From Nitrospinales bacterium (GTDB lineage: Bacteria > Nitrospinota > Nitrospinia > Nitrospinales > JAJDAT01), in assembly GCA_046757665.1 (NCBI GenBank), contig JBHHYO010000005.1:1-64000 (forward strand): a stretch of DNA of 64,000 nucleotides. The letters run 5' to 3'. Positions 47,191-53,633 of this stretch are shown here, one piece after another. The notes beneath the pieces were generated by a model. The model saw nothing but the letters and a program-made list of their open reading frames with translations. It did not search any database and was not told where the DNA came from. Position 1 is the first letter of the stretch; every line of letters begins with the position of its first letter. A program made the translations under genes and the position numbers.

Positions 47191-49989
47191 CTAAATCTTA
47201 TTACACTTACCCAAAATCTCAGCAATGTCCGAAGGCGCAAACGAGACGCCCCACATCCATTTGCCAAACCCACCGTGCTGGTTAACAGCCTTCACCCACT
47301 CATCCAACGCATTTCTTTTCGTTTTTTCTTTTTGGGTGTCCTGTCCCTTAACCTCAAGCACAAGCATCTCTCCATTTGTCAGCCGAATCAGGAAATCGGG
47401 CCGGTACTTGTGAACAACTCCTTTATAAACATAATGTATCTCAAAACCGAGATGGTCGTTTTTGACCCACGCCGCAACATTCTTTTTATCATTTTCAATG
47501 TGGAAGGCTTCCGTGGATTCCCACGCGCTGTCAAACACACAAAAATTAATATGCGACCGTTTAGTACGCTCGCACGGCTTTCCTGAATACCAGGGAAGCA
47601 TGTCTCCCGTTGACCGAATCGGGTTTTCGGAATCGAATACGGGAATCAACTCCAGTGAGTTATCAAAATTAATCGTCTCCCAAATATGATGCACCAGATT
47701 AGTCATGCGAAGAATCAAAAGAATTCGCTTTCTCATGGGGTCCTGATTGAACAGAGGAGGGGTGATTTCTACTCTGTCGGAATTGATGAATTTTTCCACC
47801 AGACAGATGACCTGGCCCAGCAAATATTCCCGGTTCCCCTTTTCTTTCCAGCCGGATTTCATTTGGTCAAAGATGCTCGCCGATACTTTGAATATGATCC
47901 TCTGTAGTCGGGATTCCCGCCCTAATTTCTCAAGGGCAATTTGGCTTATTTTGGTTACGTCCGGCTTTCCCGCAATGGTAGGGGCCATTTCCGCCAGTTC
48001 TATGATTTTGCTGGCGTCAATTCGCAAAAGGTCAACCTTTTCCAAGTCAAGTTCCAGTTTCGGCTTGTAAACATGGTTGATCCGGATAATATTCGGCCAG
48101 GATATTTCAAATTCCTTTTTCTCCACAACAGGTTCGATCCTGGTTTTAGGAGTCGGGGGCGGTGGCGGCGGACCGTCGCCTTCCTCATGCGGCAAAAATG
48201 TAAAAGGGACTCCAAAGATATTCACATATTCCGCTTGAAACAAACCATCGGAGCCAACCTCATACGATGTTCTTCTTAACCCGCGCCCTATCACTTGTTC
48301 ACAAAGCAACTGGCTGGAAAACGCTCTCAGTCCCATAATATGCGTGACGGTTTTTGTGTCCCATCCCTCCGAAAGCATTCCCACGGAAATCACGTTTTGT
48401 ATCTTTCCCCCAAGCTTGCCAATATCCCCGATGGTATTAACTTTTTGACGAAGTATTTCCGCCGCTTTCTGTTTGGTTATTTTCGGTTTGAATTTTTCGT
48501 CCGTCCCCTCATCGCCGTCGTCGCCATTAAAAAATACCGGCTCTTCCACTTCCTCCGCTTTTTTTAAGACACTGGAATCAATATGAAGAGTTAAATCCGG
48601 ATTGCATAATTCATCGATATCGATCTTTCCTTTATCGAATGAATATTTTATCCGCGCCGCGGTTTCAGTGCGATTGGCTACCGTAATCATTACGGGAGGA
48701 GCCTCCAGTTTGCTCTTCTTCCAACTTTTTGCCGTTTCCCTCCAATCCAGCCCCAACAAAAGATAGGCATTCAAAACGAGGTCGGGAAGCGGCTCCTGTT
48801 CTTCTGCTTTCTTGTTTAGGCCATCCTTGACTTCATCGGCCATGTAAAGGTGGTACAGTTTGGATTTATACGTTTTGGCGTCGGGGACGGCATCGTCCCG
48901 CACCACCACTCTGGGGGTTTTTACCAGCCCGGATTCAATAGCGTCGTTCAGTCCAAAATCGCTGACAACCCAGGGAAACAAAGCCTCTTCCCGCGCCTGT
49001 TTGCCGGAAGGGGCGAAAGGGGTGGCGGAAAGATCATAACAGGTCAATATCCCCCTGGCCTTATGGATTCGGTCCAGCCCGCCGAGCCACTTGGTAGCCT
49101 CCTCAATTTCTTCCTTCTTCACATCGCGAATCTTCGATTCGGCGGGAACCCGCCAGGCGTGATGGGCTTCGTCGTTAATCACCAAAATGTTGCGGGCATT
49201 GGCCATGTCGCCCAAAACTTCCCGCACATAGGCTTCATCACTTTTAGCTCCCCGCTTATCGACGCCTTTTTTCCTGGCGATTCTTTCTTCCTCTTCCCAG
49301 TTAAGCTTATGCCAGTTGTGAATGCGTATTTTCCCCTGCCGCAGTTTTTCCCGAAGACCCAGCGGAACGATATTAAATTCATCGTAATAATTGCCTTCTC
49401 CCGAATGATGTAAAACCTGCAAACGGCTTTTGACCGTCAGGCCGGGGGCCACGATGAAAACATATTTTGAGAATCGCTTGTCTTGCGGGTAGGTGACTTT
49501 ATTGATGACTTGCCAGGCGATCATCATTGCCATGACAATGGTTTTGCCGGAACCGGTCGCCATCTTGGAGCAAAGGCGGGTGAAAGGACCGCCGTCATCG
49601 GGGACCGCAATCCCCTGCCTTTCCGCCGCCGGGGCTTCATTGAGCCAGATCAGGGTTTCAATGGCTTCCAGTTGGCAGAAGAAGAATTTACGATGATCCC
49701 GCTCCTCCTCATTTCGCCAATGCTCCAGTAGCCTTTTGGTGATGCCGGTAACTCCGGGATACCCCGCCTCCCGCCACGCCTTTATACGGGGTCTGATTTT
49801 ATTAACCAGGGGAAGCTCAATGAATTGGCCGGGATCGTCGAAGGACTTGGAGCCGGGCGTGGCGACTACATATCCGGCGGGCCGCCGCCCTTCTTCCTTG
49901 GAGAATAAACGGGTCTCGCGGTCGTATTTCCAATACCTGGCAGGCTCTTTGTACGGAGAGTTGATAATGAGTTGGTCAATTTGTTTCAC
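47191..49989 (-). CDS. Type III restriction enzyme Res subunit (SF2 helicase plus PD-(D/E)xK nuclease)
   Basis: MATGSGKT Walker A, INDEAHH, LSATP, SEGWD, EQVIGRGLRR, YRPDF...LEVKG. Confidence 0.92.
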   Translation of the reverse strand: MKQIDQLIINSPYKEPARYWKYDRETRLFSKEEGRRPAGYVVATPGSKSFDDPGQFIELPLVNKIRPRIKAWREAGYPGVTGITKRLLEHWRNEEERDHRKFFFCQLEAIETLIWLNEAPAAERQGIAVPDDGGPFTRLCSKMATGSGKTIVMAMMIAWQVINKVTYPQDKRFSKYVFIVAPGLTVKSRLQVLHHSGEGNYYDEFNIVPLGLREKLRQGKIRIHNWHKLNWEEEERIARKKGVDKRGAKSDEAYVREVLGDMANARNILVINDEAHHAWRVPAESKIRDVKKEEIEEATKWLGGLDRIHKARGILTCYDLSATPFAPSGKQAREEALFPWVVSDFGLNDAIESGLVKTPRVVVRDDAVPDAKTYKSKLYHLYMADEVKDGLNKKAEEQEPLPDLVLNAYLLLGLDWRETAKSWKKSKLEAPPVMITVANRTETAARIKYSFDKGKIDIDELCNPDLTLHIDSSVLKKAEEVEEPVFFNGDDGDEGTDEKFKPKITKQKAAEILRQKVNTIGDIGKLGGKIQNVISVGMLSEGWDTKTVTHIMGLRAFSSQLLCEQVIGRGLRRTSYEVGSDGLFQAEYVNIFGVPFTFLPHEEGDGPPPPPPTPKTRIEPVVEKKEFEISWPNIIRINHVYKPKLELDLEKVDLLRIDASKIIELAEMAPTIAGKPDVTKISQIALEKLGRESRLQRIIFKVSASIFDQMKSGWKEKGNREYLLGQVICLVEKFINSDRVEITPPLFNQDPMRKRILLILRMTNLVHHIWETINFDNSLELIPVFDSENPIRSTGDMLPWYSGKPCERTKRSHINFCVFDSAWESTEAFHIENDKKNVAAWVKNDHLGFEIHYVYKGVVHKYRPDFLIRLTNGEMLVLEVKGQDTQKEKTKRNALDEWVKAVNQHGGFGKWMWGVSFAPSDIAEILGKCNKI

Positions 49990-50333
49990 GTTTCTTTGGT
50001 TCGAAGAATTTTTTCAAGTTCATCCGCCAAGGGCGGCAGGTCCTGGATCACCGTATTCCACACCACGTCCAGGTTGATGTCGAAATAGGCATGGATCAGC
50101 CGGTTTCTCATGGTAACGATATTGTCCCAGGGGATACGGGGAAATTTCTCCCGGCATTCCTTGCTCAACCGAGACGCCGCCTCGCCGGTAATTTCAATGG
50201 ACTTGACCAGGGCCAGCGCCAGCATCCTATCCGTGTCAAGCTCTTCCCGGCTCCTGTTGTGGGCAAAGGAAACCGCTTCCCTGGAGGCATCAAGCATGTG
50301 TTGCAGGCGGACCAGGTCCTTCCTATCGCACAT
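49986..50333 (-). CDS. HEPN (HepT/DUF86) ribonuclease toxin
   Basis: ITGEAA, IPW, MRNRLIHAYF (RX4H-x-Y), VVW...DLP. Confidence 0.92.
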   Translation of the reverse strand: MCDRKDLVRLQHMLDASREAVSFAHNRSREELDTDRMLALALVKSIEITGEAASRLSKECREKFPRIPWDNIVTMRNRLIHAYFDINLDVVWNTVIQDLPPLADELEKILRTKET

Positions 50334-50631
50334 ACAGCGCCTCCGCGGATTCCACGACCTCCTTGCGGAAGTACCGGCTCAAGTCCTCGGGCGTTCTCAA
50401 GTCCACTTTTCGCCCGACGATTCCGCCCAGCTCGATTTCCATGCCGGAAAGTTCGATCAGGCCCGGAACGTGGCCGGGCTCGAACTCCACCAGCACGTCA
50501 ACATCGCTTTCCGGACGAAAATTTTCGCCCAGAATCGAGCCAAACAGCGAAAGCTTGCGGATATGATTTCGCTTGCAGAAGGGAGCAACCTTGTCCTGGG
50601 GAATACGGATTTTTTTGCTTGCCGAAATCAT
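50323..50631 (-). CDS. Minimal nucleotidyltransferase (MNT/MntA) antitoxin
   Basis: LFGSILGENFRPESDVDVLVEF (GSX10DXD), GRKVDL. Confidence 0.92.
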   Translation of the reverse strand: MISASKKIRIPQDKVAPFCKRNHIRKLSLFGSILGENFRPESDVDVLVEFEPGHVPGLIELSGMEIELGGIVGRKVDLRTPEDLSRYFRKEVVESAEALYVR

Positions 50632-53600
50632 GCCTCTACCTTTAATATCTTCAAGCTCTCGATTCCCCGGTCATCGACGATCTTGACCGCCACCTGCCCG
50701 TGCTTTCCGGGTTCAAATGGCAGGGATACCGTTCCCCGGTAGGCTTCGATCAGTTCCTCGTCAATCTCGGCCCTTAAATTTTTCGCCAGCCGCGACCAGC
50801 CGTCTTTTTCGCCGGACATGGGGAAGAATACTTGCCGGGGGTACAGGCTCCTTTCATCGTAATCCATGTCCAGCATCCACAGGGCGATCTTCCCGGTGTC
50901 GCCCGACTCAATGGCTCCGGTCCTGGTGTTGTAGTAATCGAATCCATGCACTTCCACCTCGAATTTTCCCTTGTCCTCCCCCTTGCCGATTCGGCGAAGC
51001 TCCACGTCCGGCTGGCCGATCAGCCAGAACGACTGGTTGCCGGAGCGTCTCTTTTTGAGGTCGTCGGTCAGCAAGTCGGTGTTCATTTGCACCTTGAGGA
51101 AGATCATACCGGTTTTTTCTTCCGTCAGTTCGTCAATGTCTTTTGCCGCTTCCGGATCAAACTGGAACGATGCGAAGAGGATGATGGCGGGCTTGGGAAT
51201 CAGGGCCCGGGCTTCATGCCAGGCCATCTCCACCTGTTTCTGCTCCAGCGGCGCGTGTTCCGGACCGTAGGAAATGACCACCCTCTGCGGCTTGCCGTAG
51301 ATGACATCTTTTTCCTTGACCGTATCCTTGCCCTTGTCGTTGGGCCGGGTCTCGGCGTCGGCATGGAGCCAGCGCGTGCCGGCCAGCGGCTCGACGCGGG
51401 AGAACAAAATCATCTGCCCGTTCTTGCCGCGCACCCCGGTTTTTAGCAATTCGCTCCGCCATTCATCATGACGTTGCGTTTCTCCCGATCTTGCAACCGA
51501 CTCATCGGCGTCAAATCCCCTCTCCCCATGGGAGAGGGTTGGGGTGAGGGCATCATAAATACTCTGCAACACCCCTTCTGTCTGGGCGAACACCTCGTTA
51601 TTCCAGAATCGCAGGACATGAACACCTTTTTGCTCGAAAAAAGCCGTGCGTTTCCGGTCGTCGGCCTCCCTTTTCGGCTCGTTGTGTTGACCACCGTCGA
51701 GTTCGATGCCCAAGCGCGCCTCGTGGCAGTAAAAATCCAGAACATAGGGATCAACCGGGTGTTGCCGCCGAAATTTGCATCCCGCCAGGCGGCGGTCGCG
51801 CAACAGCGCCCAAAGCAGTTGTTCCGCCTGCGTTTGTTCCTTGCGGAGTTTGCGCGCAAATTCCAGAAGATCGGCGGGCAGGGGTTTCTTCCCCTCACCC
51901 TTCCCCCTCTCCCCATGGGAGAGGGTTGGGGTGAGGGCTTCCTCTAATGGTTTGACCATCGGGGCGGGCACGGCCTCGACGGTGAACGGGCCGGTGACCC
52001 TGGCGCGGGATTTATCCAGTTCAGGCTGATCGTACAGGGTTTCCCGTCCAGGCGGCTCGTTGTTAGCGATGGATTTCAGGGTGATGTGCGGCACCGTCTT
52101 GTAAACGAACCCGCTCCCCACCCCCTCGTCCGGGTGCGCCAGCTTGTAATAGTCGTACAAGGCCGTCATGATCCTCTGCTTGGCCAGCGTGACGGCAACT
52201 CGTGAAGTATCGCAGGTAATCCACCGCCGCCCCCACTGCTCCGCCACGTACGCCGTCGTTCCCGAACCGCAAGTCGGATCGAACACCAAATCGCCGGGGT
52301 CCGTCGTCATGAGGAGGCAACGCTGGATTACCTTGGTCGAAGTCATCACAACATACCGGACACCTTCATTAAATCTAAATACCGTGGTGTCCTCCCATAA
52401 ATGGGAAAGTCCTTGATATGGAAAATCTTCGATATAACGTTTATAACAAAGGCGTTTTTCGCCACGAATCACTAATCTTTTTAATTGCTTTAATCTATCT
52501 AGGCCCTCGATAGAACAGCTCCAGTGTCTGTCTTTCCCGGGGTGAAAACATTTGTCCTTGTATTCATAATTAGTGGTTCTATTTGGAGAAGGATTTTGGG
52601 AAGTAAGGTCAGACATCCAAAAACGCTTTCCATTGGGAATTGGTTCAAAACCCTCCAACTGTTTTTTAGTAAGCGCACACCATGTACCATTCGGCTTTTC
52701 CACATATTTATAATTTTCCAGAATGGCATCCCTGGGTTTTGGAATGAAAAGCGAACGATACTTCACATGTTTTTTTTCCTTTCCATACCAAAGAACATAA
52801 TCCATAACTGTAGGGATGAGGTTTGATGTTGCGCTACTGGTTTTTACAAATTGGATTTGGGAACAAAAATTTTTTACCCCAAAAACCTCATCCATCAAAT
52901 TTCGCACGAGGTGCACATTCTCGTCGCTGATCTGCACGAAGCACGAGCCGCTTTCGTGGAGCAGTTCGCGGGCCAGCAGTAAGCGGTCGCGCAGGTAAGT
53001 CAAATACGAGTGAATCCCCAGTTCCCAGGTGTCGCGGAAGGCGCGGATCATTTCCGGCTCCTGGTTCAAGTCGTCGTCCTTGCCGTCCTTCACGTCCCGC
53101 TTATTGACGAACGGCTGGAAATTGGAGCCGTATTTGATGCCGTAAGGCGGGTCGATATAGACCATCTGCACCTGTCCCGCCATGCCCTCCTTCTCCAGCA
53201 GGGAGTTCATGACCAGCAGGGAATCCCCGGCAATCAACCGGTTCGACCAGTTATGGGCGTGTTTGTAAAAGTCCAGAGCTTCTCTTAATGGCGGGTTTTC
53301 CTCCGGCGACTCGAACAATCCCATTTGCCCGTGGTCGTTGCCGTTGCGCCTTTTAACGGCTTCCATGACGGTTTTGGGGTCCATGCGTTCATGAACGTGC
53401 AGGGAGACGGTGGGGACTTCAAAACTGGTATGCTCGGTTTTCCCTGCCCATTGCAGGGCGGGGTCGAGGTGGGGATCGTAGGAGTATTTCTTCTTGCCCG
53501 ATTCTTTATCCGTGGCGGGAGTGACGAGTCCTACCGGAGGGTTGTTCTTCCGCTTCTTGTCCTCATGGCCGTATTGTTCGATGGGTTTTTTGGAAGATTT

Positions 53601-53633
53601 AACTTTGGATTTGACATTCTTTTGGCGAGCCAT
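50628..53633 (-). CDS. Type III R-M Mod subunit (N6-adenine DNA methyltransferase) with in-frame DUF559 insertion
   Basis: YIDPPYG motif IV, TRD, DPTCGSGTT motif I (beta-class order); extra DUF559-like domain in the C-terminal half. Confidence 0.92.
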   Translation of the reverse strand: MARQKNVKSKVKSSKKPIEQYGHEDKKRKNNPPVGLVTPATDKESGKKKYSYDPHLDPALQWAGKTEHTSFEVPTVSLHVHERMDPKTVMEAVKRRNGNDHGQMGLFESPEENPPLREALDFYKHAHNWSNRLIAGDSLLVMNSLLEKEGMAGQVQMVYIDPPYGIKYGSNFQPFVNKRDVKDGKDDDLNQEPEMIRAFRDTWELGIHSYLTYLRDRLLLARELLHESGSCFVQISDENVHLVRNLMDEVFGVKNFCSQIQFVKTSSATSNLIPTVMDYVLWYGKEKKHVKYRSLFIPKPRDAILENYKYVEKPNGTWCALTKKQLEGFEPIPNGKRFWMSDLTSQNPSPNRTTNYEYKDKCFHPGKDRHWSCSIEGLDRLKQLKRLVIRGEKRLCYKRYIEDFPYQGLSHLWEDTTVFRFNEGVRYVVMTSTKVIQRCLLMTTDPGDLVFDPTCGSGTTAYVAEQWGRRWITCDTSRVAVTLAKQRIMTALYDYYKLAHPDEGVGSGFVYKTVPHITLKSIANNEPPGRETLYDQPELDKSRARVTGPFTVEAVPAPMVKPLEEALTPTLSHGERGKGEGKKPLPADLLEFARKLRKEQTQAEQLLWALLRDRRLAGCKFRRQHPVDPYVLDFYCHEARLGIELDGGQHNEPKREADDRKRTAFFEQKGVHVLRFWNNEVFAQTEGVLQSIYDALTPTLSHGERGFDADESVARSGETQRHDEWRSELLKTGVRGKNGQMILFSRVEPLAGTRWLHADAETRPNDKGKDTVKEKDVIYGKPQRVVISYGPEHAPLEQKQVEMAWHEARALIPKPAIILFASFQFDPEAAKDIDELTEEKTGMIFLKVQMNTDLLTDDLKKRRSGNQSFWLIGQPDVELRRIGKGEDKGKFEVEVHGFDYYNTRTGAIESGDTGKIALWMLDMDYDERSLYPRQVFFPMSGEKDGWSRLAKNLRAEIDEELIEAYRGTVSLPFEPGKHGQVAVKIVDDRGIESLKILKVEA
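51517..51551. repeat. 35-bp palindromic direct repeat, copy 1
   Basis: CCCCTCTCCCCATGGGAGAGGGTTGGGGTGAGGGC. Confidence 0.95.
51904..51938. repeat. 35-bp palindromic direct repeat, copy 2 (part of a longer hairpin starting at 51892)
   Basis: Identical to copy 1; upstream CCCTCACCC (51892-51900) pairs with GGGTGAGGG (51929-51937). Confidence 0.95.

Follow-up and report, generated by a model that had tools for sequence, protein, structure and literature searches.

An in-frame DUF559 nuclease cassette with BoxC/PIT/TMECO-type repeat ends, probably gained horizontally in the linker of a Type III DNA methyltransferase

The window analyzed herein is a stretch of 64,000 nucleotides from a Nitrospinales bacterium (contig JBHHYO010000005.1, positions 1 to 64,000), in which the gene for a Type III DNA methyltransferase (mod, encoding Mod) harbors a DUF559 nuclease domain between two identical repeats. 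On balance, we read this 423-bp stretch as one of a family of cassettes, in which a DUF559 nuclease gene is bounded by ends of the BoxC/PIT/TMECO repeat type, and as a horizontal gain in the Mod linker. The evidence is strong that the cassette lies in frame in a variable inter-domain linker of a Type III Mod, and equally strong that its repeat ends encode linker-like peptides (ALTPTLSHGERG(KGEG)), which are stop-free in the frame used. The host gene and the parts of the cassette are as follows:

50628..53633, minus strand: Type III mod, 1001 aa, host of the cassette (Pfam N6_N4_Mtase, E 4.1e-29; PADLOC MTase_III, E 3.1e-154)
51516..51938 (423 bp), minus strand: the cassette (repeat, DUF559, repeat), residues 566-706 of Mod, 141 aa, in frame in mod
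51546..51866, minus strand: DUF559 (Vsr-fold PD-(D/E)xK) nuclease domain, residues 590-696 (Pfam, E 1.2e-37)
51892..51938, no strand assigned: 5' gene-proximal end, the full nested palindrome CCCTCACCC / CCCTCTCCC / loop / GGGAGAGGG / GGGTGAGGG
51517..51551, no strand assigned: 3' gene-distal end, 35-mer copy 1 with pyrimidine arm, purine arm and third-strand arm, read as ALTPTLSHGERG

The two 35-mers (51517-51551 and 51904-51938) are identical and lie 387 bp, or 129 codons, apart from start to start, a match that none of 100 shuffles reproduced and that grows to 38 nt if one mismatch is allowed. Their shared translation on the minus strand is ALTPTLSHGERG, found at Mod residues 566-577 and 695-706; five of the six frames of the 35-mer are free of stops, and the reading frame of mod is open over 1001 codons; the original prediction, which had described identical repeats that are translated alike, hold no stops and keep the frame, was thus borne out by the sequence and the shuffles. 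Within each 35-mer lies a hairpin (CCCTCTCCC/GGGAGAGGG) with a 9-bp pyrimidine/purine stem. The longer hairpin that had been expected for the second copy was confirmed by folding at the 51904 copy only, which extends to a nested palindrome (51892-51937; DNA fold −20 kcal/mol, z −3.0) that folded equally well in 0-1 of 200 shuffles; the copy at 51517 is without the outer arm and folds at −10.9 to −11.1 kcal/mol (z −2.4 to −2.8). The gene-proximal end (51892..51938), which contains the second 35-mer (51904-51938), is translated as ALTPTLSHGERGKGEG, and it is the extra outward arm on this end that leaves the cassette of the window with a direct repeat of 35 nt.

These repeats are of a known type that had gone unrecognized in the earlier description. 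The E. coli TMECO (BoxC/PIT) consensus, given as CCCTCNCCC-N3-6-GGGNGAGGG-N3-GGGNGAGGG in the available part of Holder et al. 2015 (PMC4666352), is matched exactly at 51518-51550 and 51905-51937 and in none of 100 shuffles. Judged by its letters, the 35-mer is a class II “intrastrand triplex motif” with a pyrimidine arm, a purine arm and a G/T-rich third arm, and the gene-distal copy has this motif on the plus strand. The third arm follows the G.G, A.A, T.A pairing rule (checked by script), the triplex being a prediction and the computed folding giving the hairpin only. In the available sections of the same paper (PMC4666352), TMECO is reported as always intergenic, multi-copy and without a nearby mobility gene, and the word “endonuclease” is absent from that text. 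Alike in consensus and class II layout, the repeats of the window are unlike such elements in lying inside the mod ORF (open reading frame), in being translated, in numbering only two and in bracketing a nuclease domain, and they are therefore not the intergenic, dispersed, multi-copy repeats of the published description. With up to six mismatches allowed, the two copies are the only ones in the 2.97-Mb assembly, and genome-wide searches with the halves of the 35-mer and with looser hairpin patterns returned nothing beyond them.

As had been predicted, the repeats enclose a complete DUF559 domain: the profile (PF04480) is matched over positions 4-108 of 109 at 128.6 bits against a cut-off of 20.6 (133.6 bits in the search of the genome, in which this is the one DUF559 copy), and the only domains that Pfam found in the Mod of the window are DUF559, MTES_1575 and N6_N4_Mtase. 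By sequence, the cassette matches the Protein Data Bank (PDB) entry 3HRL with E 6.1e-21. An AlphaFold model of the cassette (52-row alignment) reached a mean pLDDT of 89.6, with low confidence for the first 10-20 residues (the proximal repeat peptide). Its top Foldseek match was the DUF559 crystal structure 3hrl (1.3e-8, target-normalized TM-score 0.89), followed by the catalytic domain of the homing endonuclease I-Bth0305I (3r3p, 1.6e-4), with E. coli Vsr only at rank 15. The model gives strong support to a nuclease that would fold as an independent domain, and such a fold would allow Mod to stay in one piece without splicing. The family-invariant residues are all present (W43, F56, R58, Q59, D68, E79, D81, H85, D94, R97 and R110 in cassette numbering) and are intact in all 19 Mod-borne copies, save G82 (17 of 19) and R57 (18 of 19). 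A published classification, as far as its available part goes, assigns DUF559 to one group with the housekeeping Vsr enzymes and I-Bth0305I, its entry on transfer being “No HGT observed” (HGT, horizontal gene transfer; PMC3424549).

For comparison at the level of the host protein we used the 120 best Mod homologues of 8000 scored, the query included. DUF559 is absent from 100 of these (~850-900 aa long) and present in 20 with the query, in agreement with the earlier statement that it is not canonical in Mod. In the Mod alignment that had been put forward as a check, the gap against insert-free sisters takes in both repeats, opening shortly ahead of the first and closing shortly past the second (pairwise alignments). 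The linker that holds the cassette lies between VEAVPAPxVKPL and ADESVARSGET and is 20-24 aa long in 91 of the 100 DUF559-free homologues, and in two genomes of the same order insert-free Mod alleles show a clean linker that reads AVKSLDDMLPDTPPPADVSIVR (this empty-linker sequence was read directly, the three-way DNA alignment of filled and empty alleles being poor at the left flank). Sister alignments, linker lengths and same-order empty alleles together describe a cassette that replaces the middle of a variable linker.

In a tree of the 120 Mod proteins, from which the insert columns had been dropped, 18 carriers fell in one 19-row clade (support 99). The sole insert-free member of this clade (P0068) is nested among the carriers and has a clean linker. 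Another carrier, P0119, has its DUF559 at a different place in Mod, within an intein-like insert. The Mod of the window (P0001) fell in a four-row clade with three insert-free sisters (support 100), and in the 43-row clade around it (support 100) it is the sole carrier; four changes of cassette state are needed on this tree. An approximately unbiased (AU) test on 47 rows, made up of the 19 linker carriers and 28 others hand-picked across the tree, rejected the grouping of all 19 linker carriers in a single clade (delta lnL 224.75, p 0.0003). A second search yielded 17 more carriers, of which the tree placed 11 in the carrier clade, six outside it and none in the sub-clade of the window. One gain is simpler than ancestral presence, since the latter would need at least seven clean losses, and the same linker position in both groups makes an independent gain the likeliest course; from these alignments and trees, the Mod of the window appears most likely to have gained its cassette independently. 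In this the cassette is like a homing endonuclease gene: a single site in homologous genes is occupied patchily, in a pattern for which the host-gene tree does not account.

Cassette hits of at least 70% identity in longer proteins numbered 26, comprising 17 N6_N4 methyltransferases, eight proteins without another domain (at least one of them a Mod fragment) and one DUF1156 protein, and HsdS, HsdM, HsdR, Type IIG, MetRS and other hosts appeared only below 70% identity. The window and the carrier clade have their junctions in common, with VKxL[DE]E before a cassette that ends in GER[EG]F[TD] and AD.S after it. The DUF559 domain of the window is 73-74.8% identical to those of six carrier-clade members whose core identity to its Mod is 68.5-70.8%; among 99 pairs from within the clade whose core identity is 65-75%, DUF559 identity reaches 67.6% at most. 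The source of the cassette would be a DUF559 lineage at the same linker position in another Mod clade, and its transfer would be homing-like and site-specific instead of vertical. Other hosts also have DUF559 lineages of their own: the 27 HsdS copies need seven changes versus a shuffled mean of 25.3, and four MetRS/tRNA_bind copies form a five-row group with one further protein (support 95). Of the short nearest relatives, P0123, P0127 and P0133 were inspected by eye as possible Mod pieces, and P0127 and P0133 proved not to be Mod fragments, which P0122 and P0142 are.

The association of such repeats with DUF559 extends beyond the window. DUF559 is present in 28 of 40 related genomes, mostly as ORFs of 113-170 aa, and we examined 29 loci. 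Perfect pyrimidine/purine hairpins of at least 8 bp occurred at 3.95 per kb within 150 nt of DUF559 versus 0.14 per kb beyond 400 nt (~28-fold), and they lay on both sides of the gene in 11 loci, upstream only in three, downstream only in five and on neither side in 10. The third arm was turned towards the gene in most hairpins, both upstream (12 of 14) and downstream (14 of 16), which means that the ends are inverted, and the cassette of the window keeps this layout of the free-standing loci. The arm sequences themselves vary by locus (CCYTCTCCC, CCCCCTTT, CCCCTCC and CCCTCTTT). In 12 of the 29 loci the gene was spanned by direct repeats of 20-69 nt, as against at most 14 nt in the 23 loci for which a displaced control could be measured, and flanking peptide repeats of at least 9 aa were present in 18 of 89 proteins versus 1-4 in shuffled pairings. 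In the Mod locus of a Dehalococcoidia metagenome-assembled genome (L059, 4155-4791), DUF559 lies in frame between the two copies of a 64-nt direct repeat, which are 89% identical at a distance of 573 bp; the repeat includes ~22 nt of host linker plus a triplex-type motif and looks like a duplicated target. The co-occurrence that had been proposed for repeat and DUF559 was accordingly found, with hairpins tied to DUF559 both in free-standing genes and in frame in unrelated proteins.

DUF559 is a very large family: among 1.84 billion representative proteins searched, 25,638 matched it at E 0.001 or better. Hosts were scanned for 79 of the 80 proteins of at least 278 aa among the top 150 matches. 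Restriction-modification (R-M) or defence proteins accounted for 42 of the 79 (27 HsdS, four N6_N4, nine Type IIG/ISP/N6_Mtase, one DUF1156 and one DUF7008), and housekeeping proteins for 23: five tRNA-synthetase pieces, two tRNA_bind, RecG, Mfd, a DEAD helicase, Maf, FtsJ, an EPSP synthase with NUDIX, CobT, a small methyltransferase, an aminotransferase, a histidine kinase, a nucleotidyl transferase, two GNATs, IGPS, OMP decarboxylase and MetH. The remainder were 13 proteins without another domain and one tandem triple DUF559. Repeat-type peptides, an approximate motif of our own definition (SPxGRGxGGEG, PLPxGEG, LTPxLSxGER), stood on both sides of DUF559 in 24 of the 27 HsdS, 10 of the 15 other R-M and 14 of the 23 housekeeping hosts. 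Variant arrangements were also seen: P0130 (377 aa) has three tandem DUF559 domains and the Type IIG protein P0144 has two, and in P0124 the cassette sits at another Mod position, inside an extra domain and again between direct repeat peptides.

Repeat-type peptides also occur in the same Mod linker without DUF559, in P0028, P0071, P0109 and P0119 (P0019 being doubtful), a count that comes from eight linkers of at least 27 aa read by eye and that a narrower pattern search put at none of 100. The solo repeat of P0109 was seen as DNA too (in the locus L051), and that of P0119 is a 21-aa gap against its sister P0120. The solo repeats are read in another frame or orientation than those of the window (SPLxGEGxGEG). 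Together, solo repeats and cassette in one linker mark this linker as a repeated landing site, with or without the nuclease. Elsewhere in Mod, the carrier-clade members P0003, P0004, P0014, P0015 and P0022 have repeat-type peptide inserts without DUF559 at other positions, for example after the methyltransferase core and inside an extra domain of 107-135 aa.

Comparison with relatives suggests that the cassette came to its place in Mod as a mobile, probably selfish, element. The nuclease may nick or cut a cassette-free site or the structured repeats cognate to it, after which the cassette may be copied in by repair or by template switching from repeat to repeat, which would explain why brackets of direct repeats are frequent and why some of them include host sequence. 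The perfect identity of the two 35-mers could have been made at insertion, or it could stem from later conversion between two quasi-palindromes. The insertion would be tolerated because the linker is variable, because the ends are stop-free linker peptides and because the nuclease folds by itself. Given that the genome has no other copies of the repeat, the cassette would now be resident, possibly as a co-opted domain of Mod. A broader and more tentative proposal, possible in our view without being probable, is that of a class of “spliceless” in-frame homing elements, in which a Vsr-fold nuclease would attack empty sites or solo repeats, the ends would serve as stop-free linkers, the specificity genes of R-M systems (Mod, HsdS, Type IIG) would be the main reservoir and the nuclease would be the enzyme partner of BoxC/PIT/TMECO repeats.

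A number of our results weigh against a mobile cassette that was gained horizontally. The genome holds one DUF559 and two repeat copies, and no mobility was seen directly. The group rejected by the AU test had been named after the first tree was seen, and the excess of DUF559 similarity to the carrier clade is modest. In the protein alignment, the 25 columns to each side of the insert gave no sign of co-conversion of the Mod flanks, the residues that flank the insert being sister-like (sister-like/clade-like informative sites 4/0, 4/0 and 3/0 in the three nearest windows). With flanks of this kind any conversion tract would have to be short, and without co-conversion classical homing with long conversion tracts is not shown. 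In a tree of DUF559 (119 columns) the domain of the window is placed among Mod-borne ones with weak support, and inside the carrier clade this tree repeats sub-clades seen in the tree of Mod, which looks like vertical inheritance. The cassette is retained down to ~65% core identity with its invariant residues intact, which fits a useful domain equally well. Lastly, 10 of the 29 loci are without a perfect hairpin of at least 8 bp nearby, five of them holding a divergent DUF559 subfamily in longer ORFs from one genus.

The main rival to our reading is a domesticated domain, according to which DUF559 is a working part of the restriction system, providing for example a second nicking or cutting activity that is tethered to the DNA-recognizing subunit, and the repeats, whatever their origin, are merely linkers. 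We judge this rather unlikely. It would agree with the 18 of 19 members of one Mod clade that keep the cassette, with the invariant residues kept in each of the 19 copies, with the 42 of 79 long relatives that are R-M or defence proteins, and with the Caulobacter free-standing DUF559 protein VsrA, which the available part of the report describes as the cause of DNA damage and of a DNA damage response once a cytosine methyltransferase is deleted (PMC12907096). However, the close lineage is also present in tRNA synthetases, Maf, IGPS, OMP decarboxylase, MetH and others, where a role for a nuclease is not obvious, 100 of the 120 close Mods work without DUF559, P0068 has a clean linker in the midst of carriers, and the copy of the window looks like a separate gain. 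The mobile and the domesticated readings are in any case compatible with each other.

The solo repeat peptides (P0028, P0071, P0109, P0119), along with those at other Mod positions, could also be taken to mean that BoxC-type repeats enter the linker alone and that DUF559 is an unrelated fusion that came to lie between two of them. Two independent invasions of this sort are improbable, as hairpins are ~28-fold denser beside DUF559 and regular in orientation (12 of 14 and 14 of 16), repeat peptides flank DUF559 in most host proteins, and the genome has no other copy of the repeat.

The original prediction had further suggested that recombination between the repeats switches Mod between two forms, 387 bp dropping out and returning. 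The arithmetic stands: with two identical direct repeats at a distance divisible by three (387), a deletion between them would remove 129 codons and leave one ALTPTLSHGERG, and brackets of direct repeats recur in relatives. The single footprint that such a deletion predicts (ALTPTLSxGER) was, however, found in none of the 100 DUF559-free linkers, and in the Logan contigs of two sequencing runs the depth of the inner piece is about equal to that of its flanks (13.8 versus 17.7 and 15.0 in X1; 11.7 versus 13.6 on the left and 11.4 on the right in X2). These contigs show no joint and neither a deletion form nor a circle, with the reservation that a 387-bp deletion makes no new 31-mers and contigs of k=31 are blind to its joint. 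We consider an excision switch very improbable.

The same contigs, from runs that may be the own source of the window and are then no independent support, reproduce the left flank, the inner piece and the right flank, with the breaks at the repeat that k=31 would lead one to expect. The 35-nt repeat unitig stands at a depth of 23 in X2, about twice that of its neighbours, which fits two copies per genome. That a misjoin at the repeat made the duplication or the insertion can hardly be credited: short-k contigs do break exactly at the 35-mer, which leaves the order of the pieces unsettled by the graph alone, but the frame runs on through 1001 codons, the same architecture recurs in other assemblies in at least 35 further Mod proteins, and the X2 repeat unitig is at twice the neighbouring depth.

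Known systems resemble the cassette in part. REP/RAYT systems (REP, repetitive extragenic palindromic) have as their hallmarks a tyrosine transposase of the HUH type (IS200/IS605-like) and tens to hundreds of cognate repeats. The cassette is like REP/REPIN and RAYT in that a nuclease-type gene is flanked by its own hairpin repeats, variants of which differ between loci, and unlike them in that its enzyme has the PD-(D/E)xK Vsr fold and its genome is without a dispersed repeat population. With two repeat copies only and a nuclease that is not an HUH transposase, this analogy was rejected for this genome; of the mobile-module analogies drawn in the original prediction, it is the homing endonuclease that found some support, in the fold (second only to DUF559 itself is I-Bth0305I) and the patchy site.

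Inteins are recognized by an N-terminal Cys or Ser, a C-terminal His-Asn followed by Cys, Ser or Thr, and a Hint fold. They share with the cassette the selfish in-frame insertion of an endonuclease in a conserved gene, and differ in that the cassette of the window must stay in the mature protein; as it starts with ALTP, ends with GERG followed by F and has no Hint or intein match, we rejected its identity as an intein. A DUF559 domain does occur in an intein-like insert in P0119, where residues 493-804 form an insert of 312 aa that starts with Cys, ends with His-Asn followed by Cys, is absent from the sister P0120 and splits the S-adenosylmethionine-binding motif (DPT|...|CGSGTT), with DUF559 in frame at residues 632-736 and a weak Pfam intein match (E 0.0096, below the cut-off). 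From these features the insert looks like a contiguous intein with a DUF559 endonuclease. A survey of Vsr-like endonucleases in inteins, in its available part, has them only in split inteins and, newly, on the antisense strand, and the contiguous arrangement is not listed there (10.1101/2025.01.02.630785).

The Vsr-like/EDxHD homing endonucleases (I-Bth0305I, PDB 3R3P), as described in the available parts of PMC3239194 and PMC2677866, match the cassette in catalytic fold, and the cassette is like them in its patchy presence at one site, in a gain that the host tree does not explain and in its host-specific lineages. Unlike them, it is translated within its host and has structured repeat ends, and in place of the usual housing (a self-splicing intron or intein, or a free-standing gene) it lies in frame with no intron, intein signature or Hint domain. 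Rickettsia palindromic elements (RPEs) are, from the accessible part of PMC10969869, ~150 bp long, non-autonomous, confined to Rickettsia, in frame and translated. They and in-frame miniature inverted-repeat transposable elements resemble the cassette as palindromic repeats that lie in frame within unrelated genes and that the host protein can accommodate, and the cassette differs from RPEs, as far as that source describes them, in that its repeats bracket a nuclease module and belong to a pan-bacterial repeat type. In the literature searched, most subscription journals being outside its coverage, we found no paper that ties DUF559 to BoxC-type repeats or to in-frame insertion.

To our knowledge, BoxC/PIT/TMECO repeats, known from the 1990s on, have had neither a function nor a partner enzyme assigned to them. 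If our proposal is true, these orphan repeats get their missing enzyme partner, and a cassette of nuclease and repeats with in-frame entry into genes would give selfish DNA a new means of persisting in essential or defence genes, as well as a source of domain insertions in proteins and of routine misannotation. To this the window contributes a host that is a Type III Mod, a second gain at one site that was put to a test, junctions that match and recurrent direct-repeat brackets, along with the absence of co-conversion and the solo repeats in the same linker. The locus is also a clean test case, having one cassette, a defined empty site in the sisters and a host enzyme whose activity can be assayed.

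The host gene itself is a Type III mod with its N6_N4_Mtase core at residues 155-485 of the protein and a conserved C-terminal part from ~residue 708, and it shares an operon with res, which lies 639 bp downstream of the end of mod. The three further genes of the operon are:

50323..50631, minus strand: MNT-type nucleotidyltransferase (antitoxin-like), with a 4-nt overlap with the end of mod (Pfam NTP_transf_2, E 1.4e-12; PADLOC PDC-S09)
49986..50333, minus strand: HepT-like RNase (toxin-like), between MNT and res (Pfam HepT-like, E 2.8e-24)
47191..49989, minus strand: Type III res, 932 aa (Pfam ResIII, E 4.5e-8; PADLOC REase_III, E 7.5e-12)

The MNT/HepT pair (49986-50631, minus strand) is wedged between mod and res with gene ends that overlap by 4 or 11 nt, and from these overlaps all four genes look co-transcribed. 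Homologues of res follow mod in 27 of 40 related loci, either directly or past a gap of 0.8-1.4 kb, and MNT/HepT homologues were found in the mod-res gap of only one of these (L064). The GC content is 48.9% in res and 50.9% in the 5' part of mod, compared with a mean of 56.6% for the window and 63.3% for the neighbouring MiaB-like gene, and from its low GC content the operon (47191-53633) may have arrived horizontally; homologues of it were found in Planctomycetota, Verrucomicrobiota, Acidobacteriota, Chloroflexota and others. Finally, the presumed target-recognition part of Mod (~52317-52835, residues 267-439) is 33-47% identical to the three sisters, to which most other windows along Mod are 75-99% identical, a drop in protein identity that fits swapping of the specificity domain.

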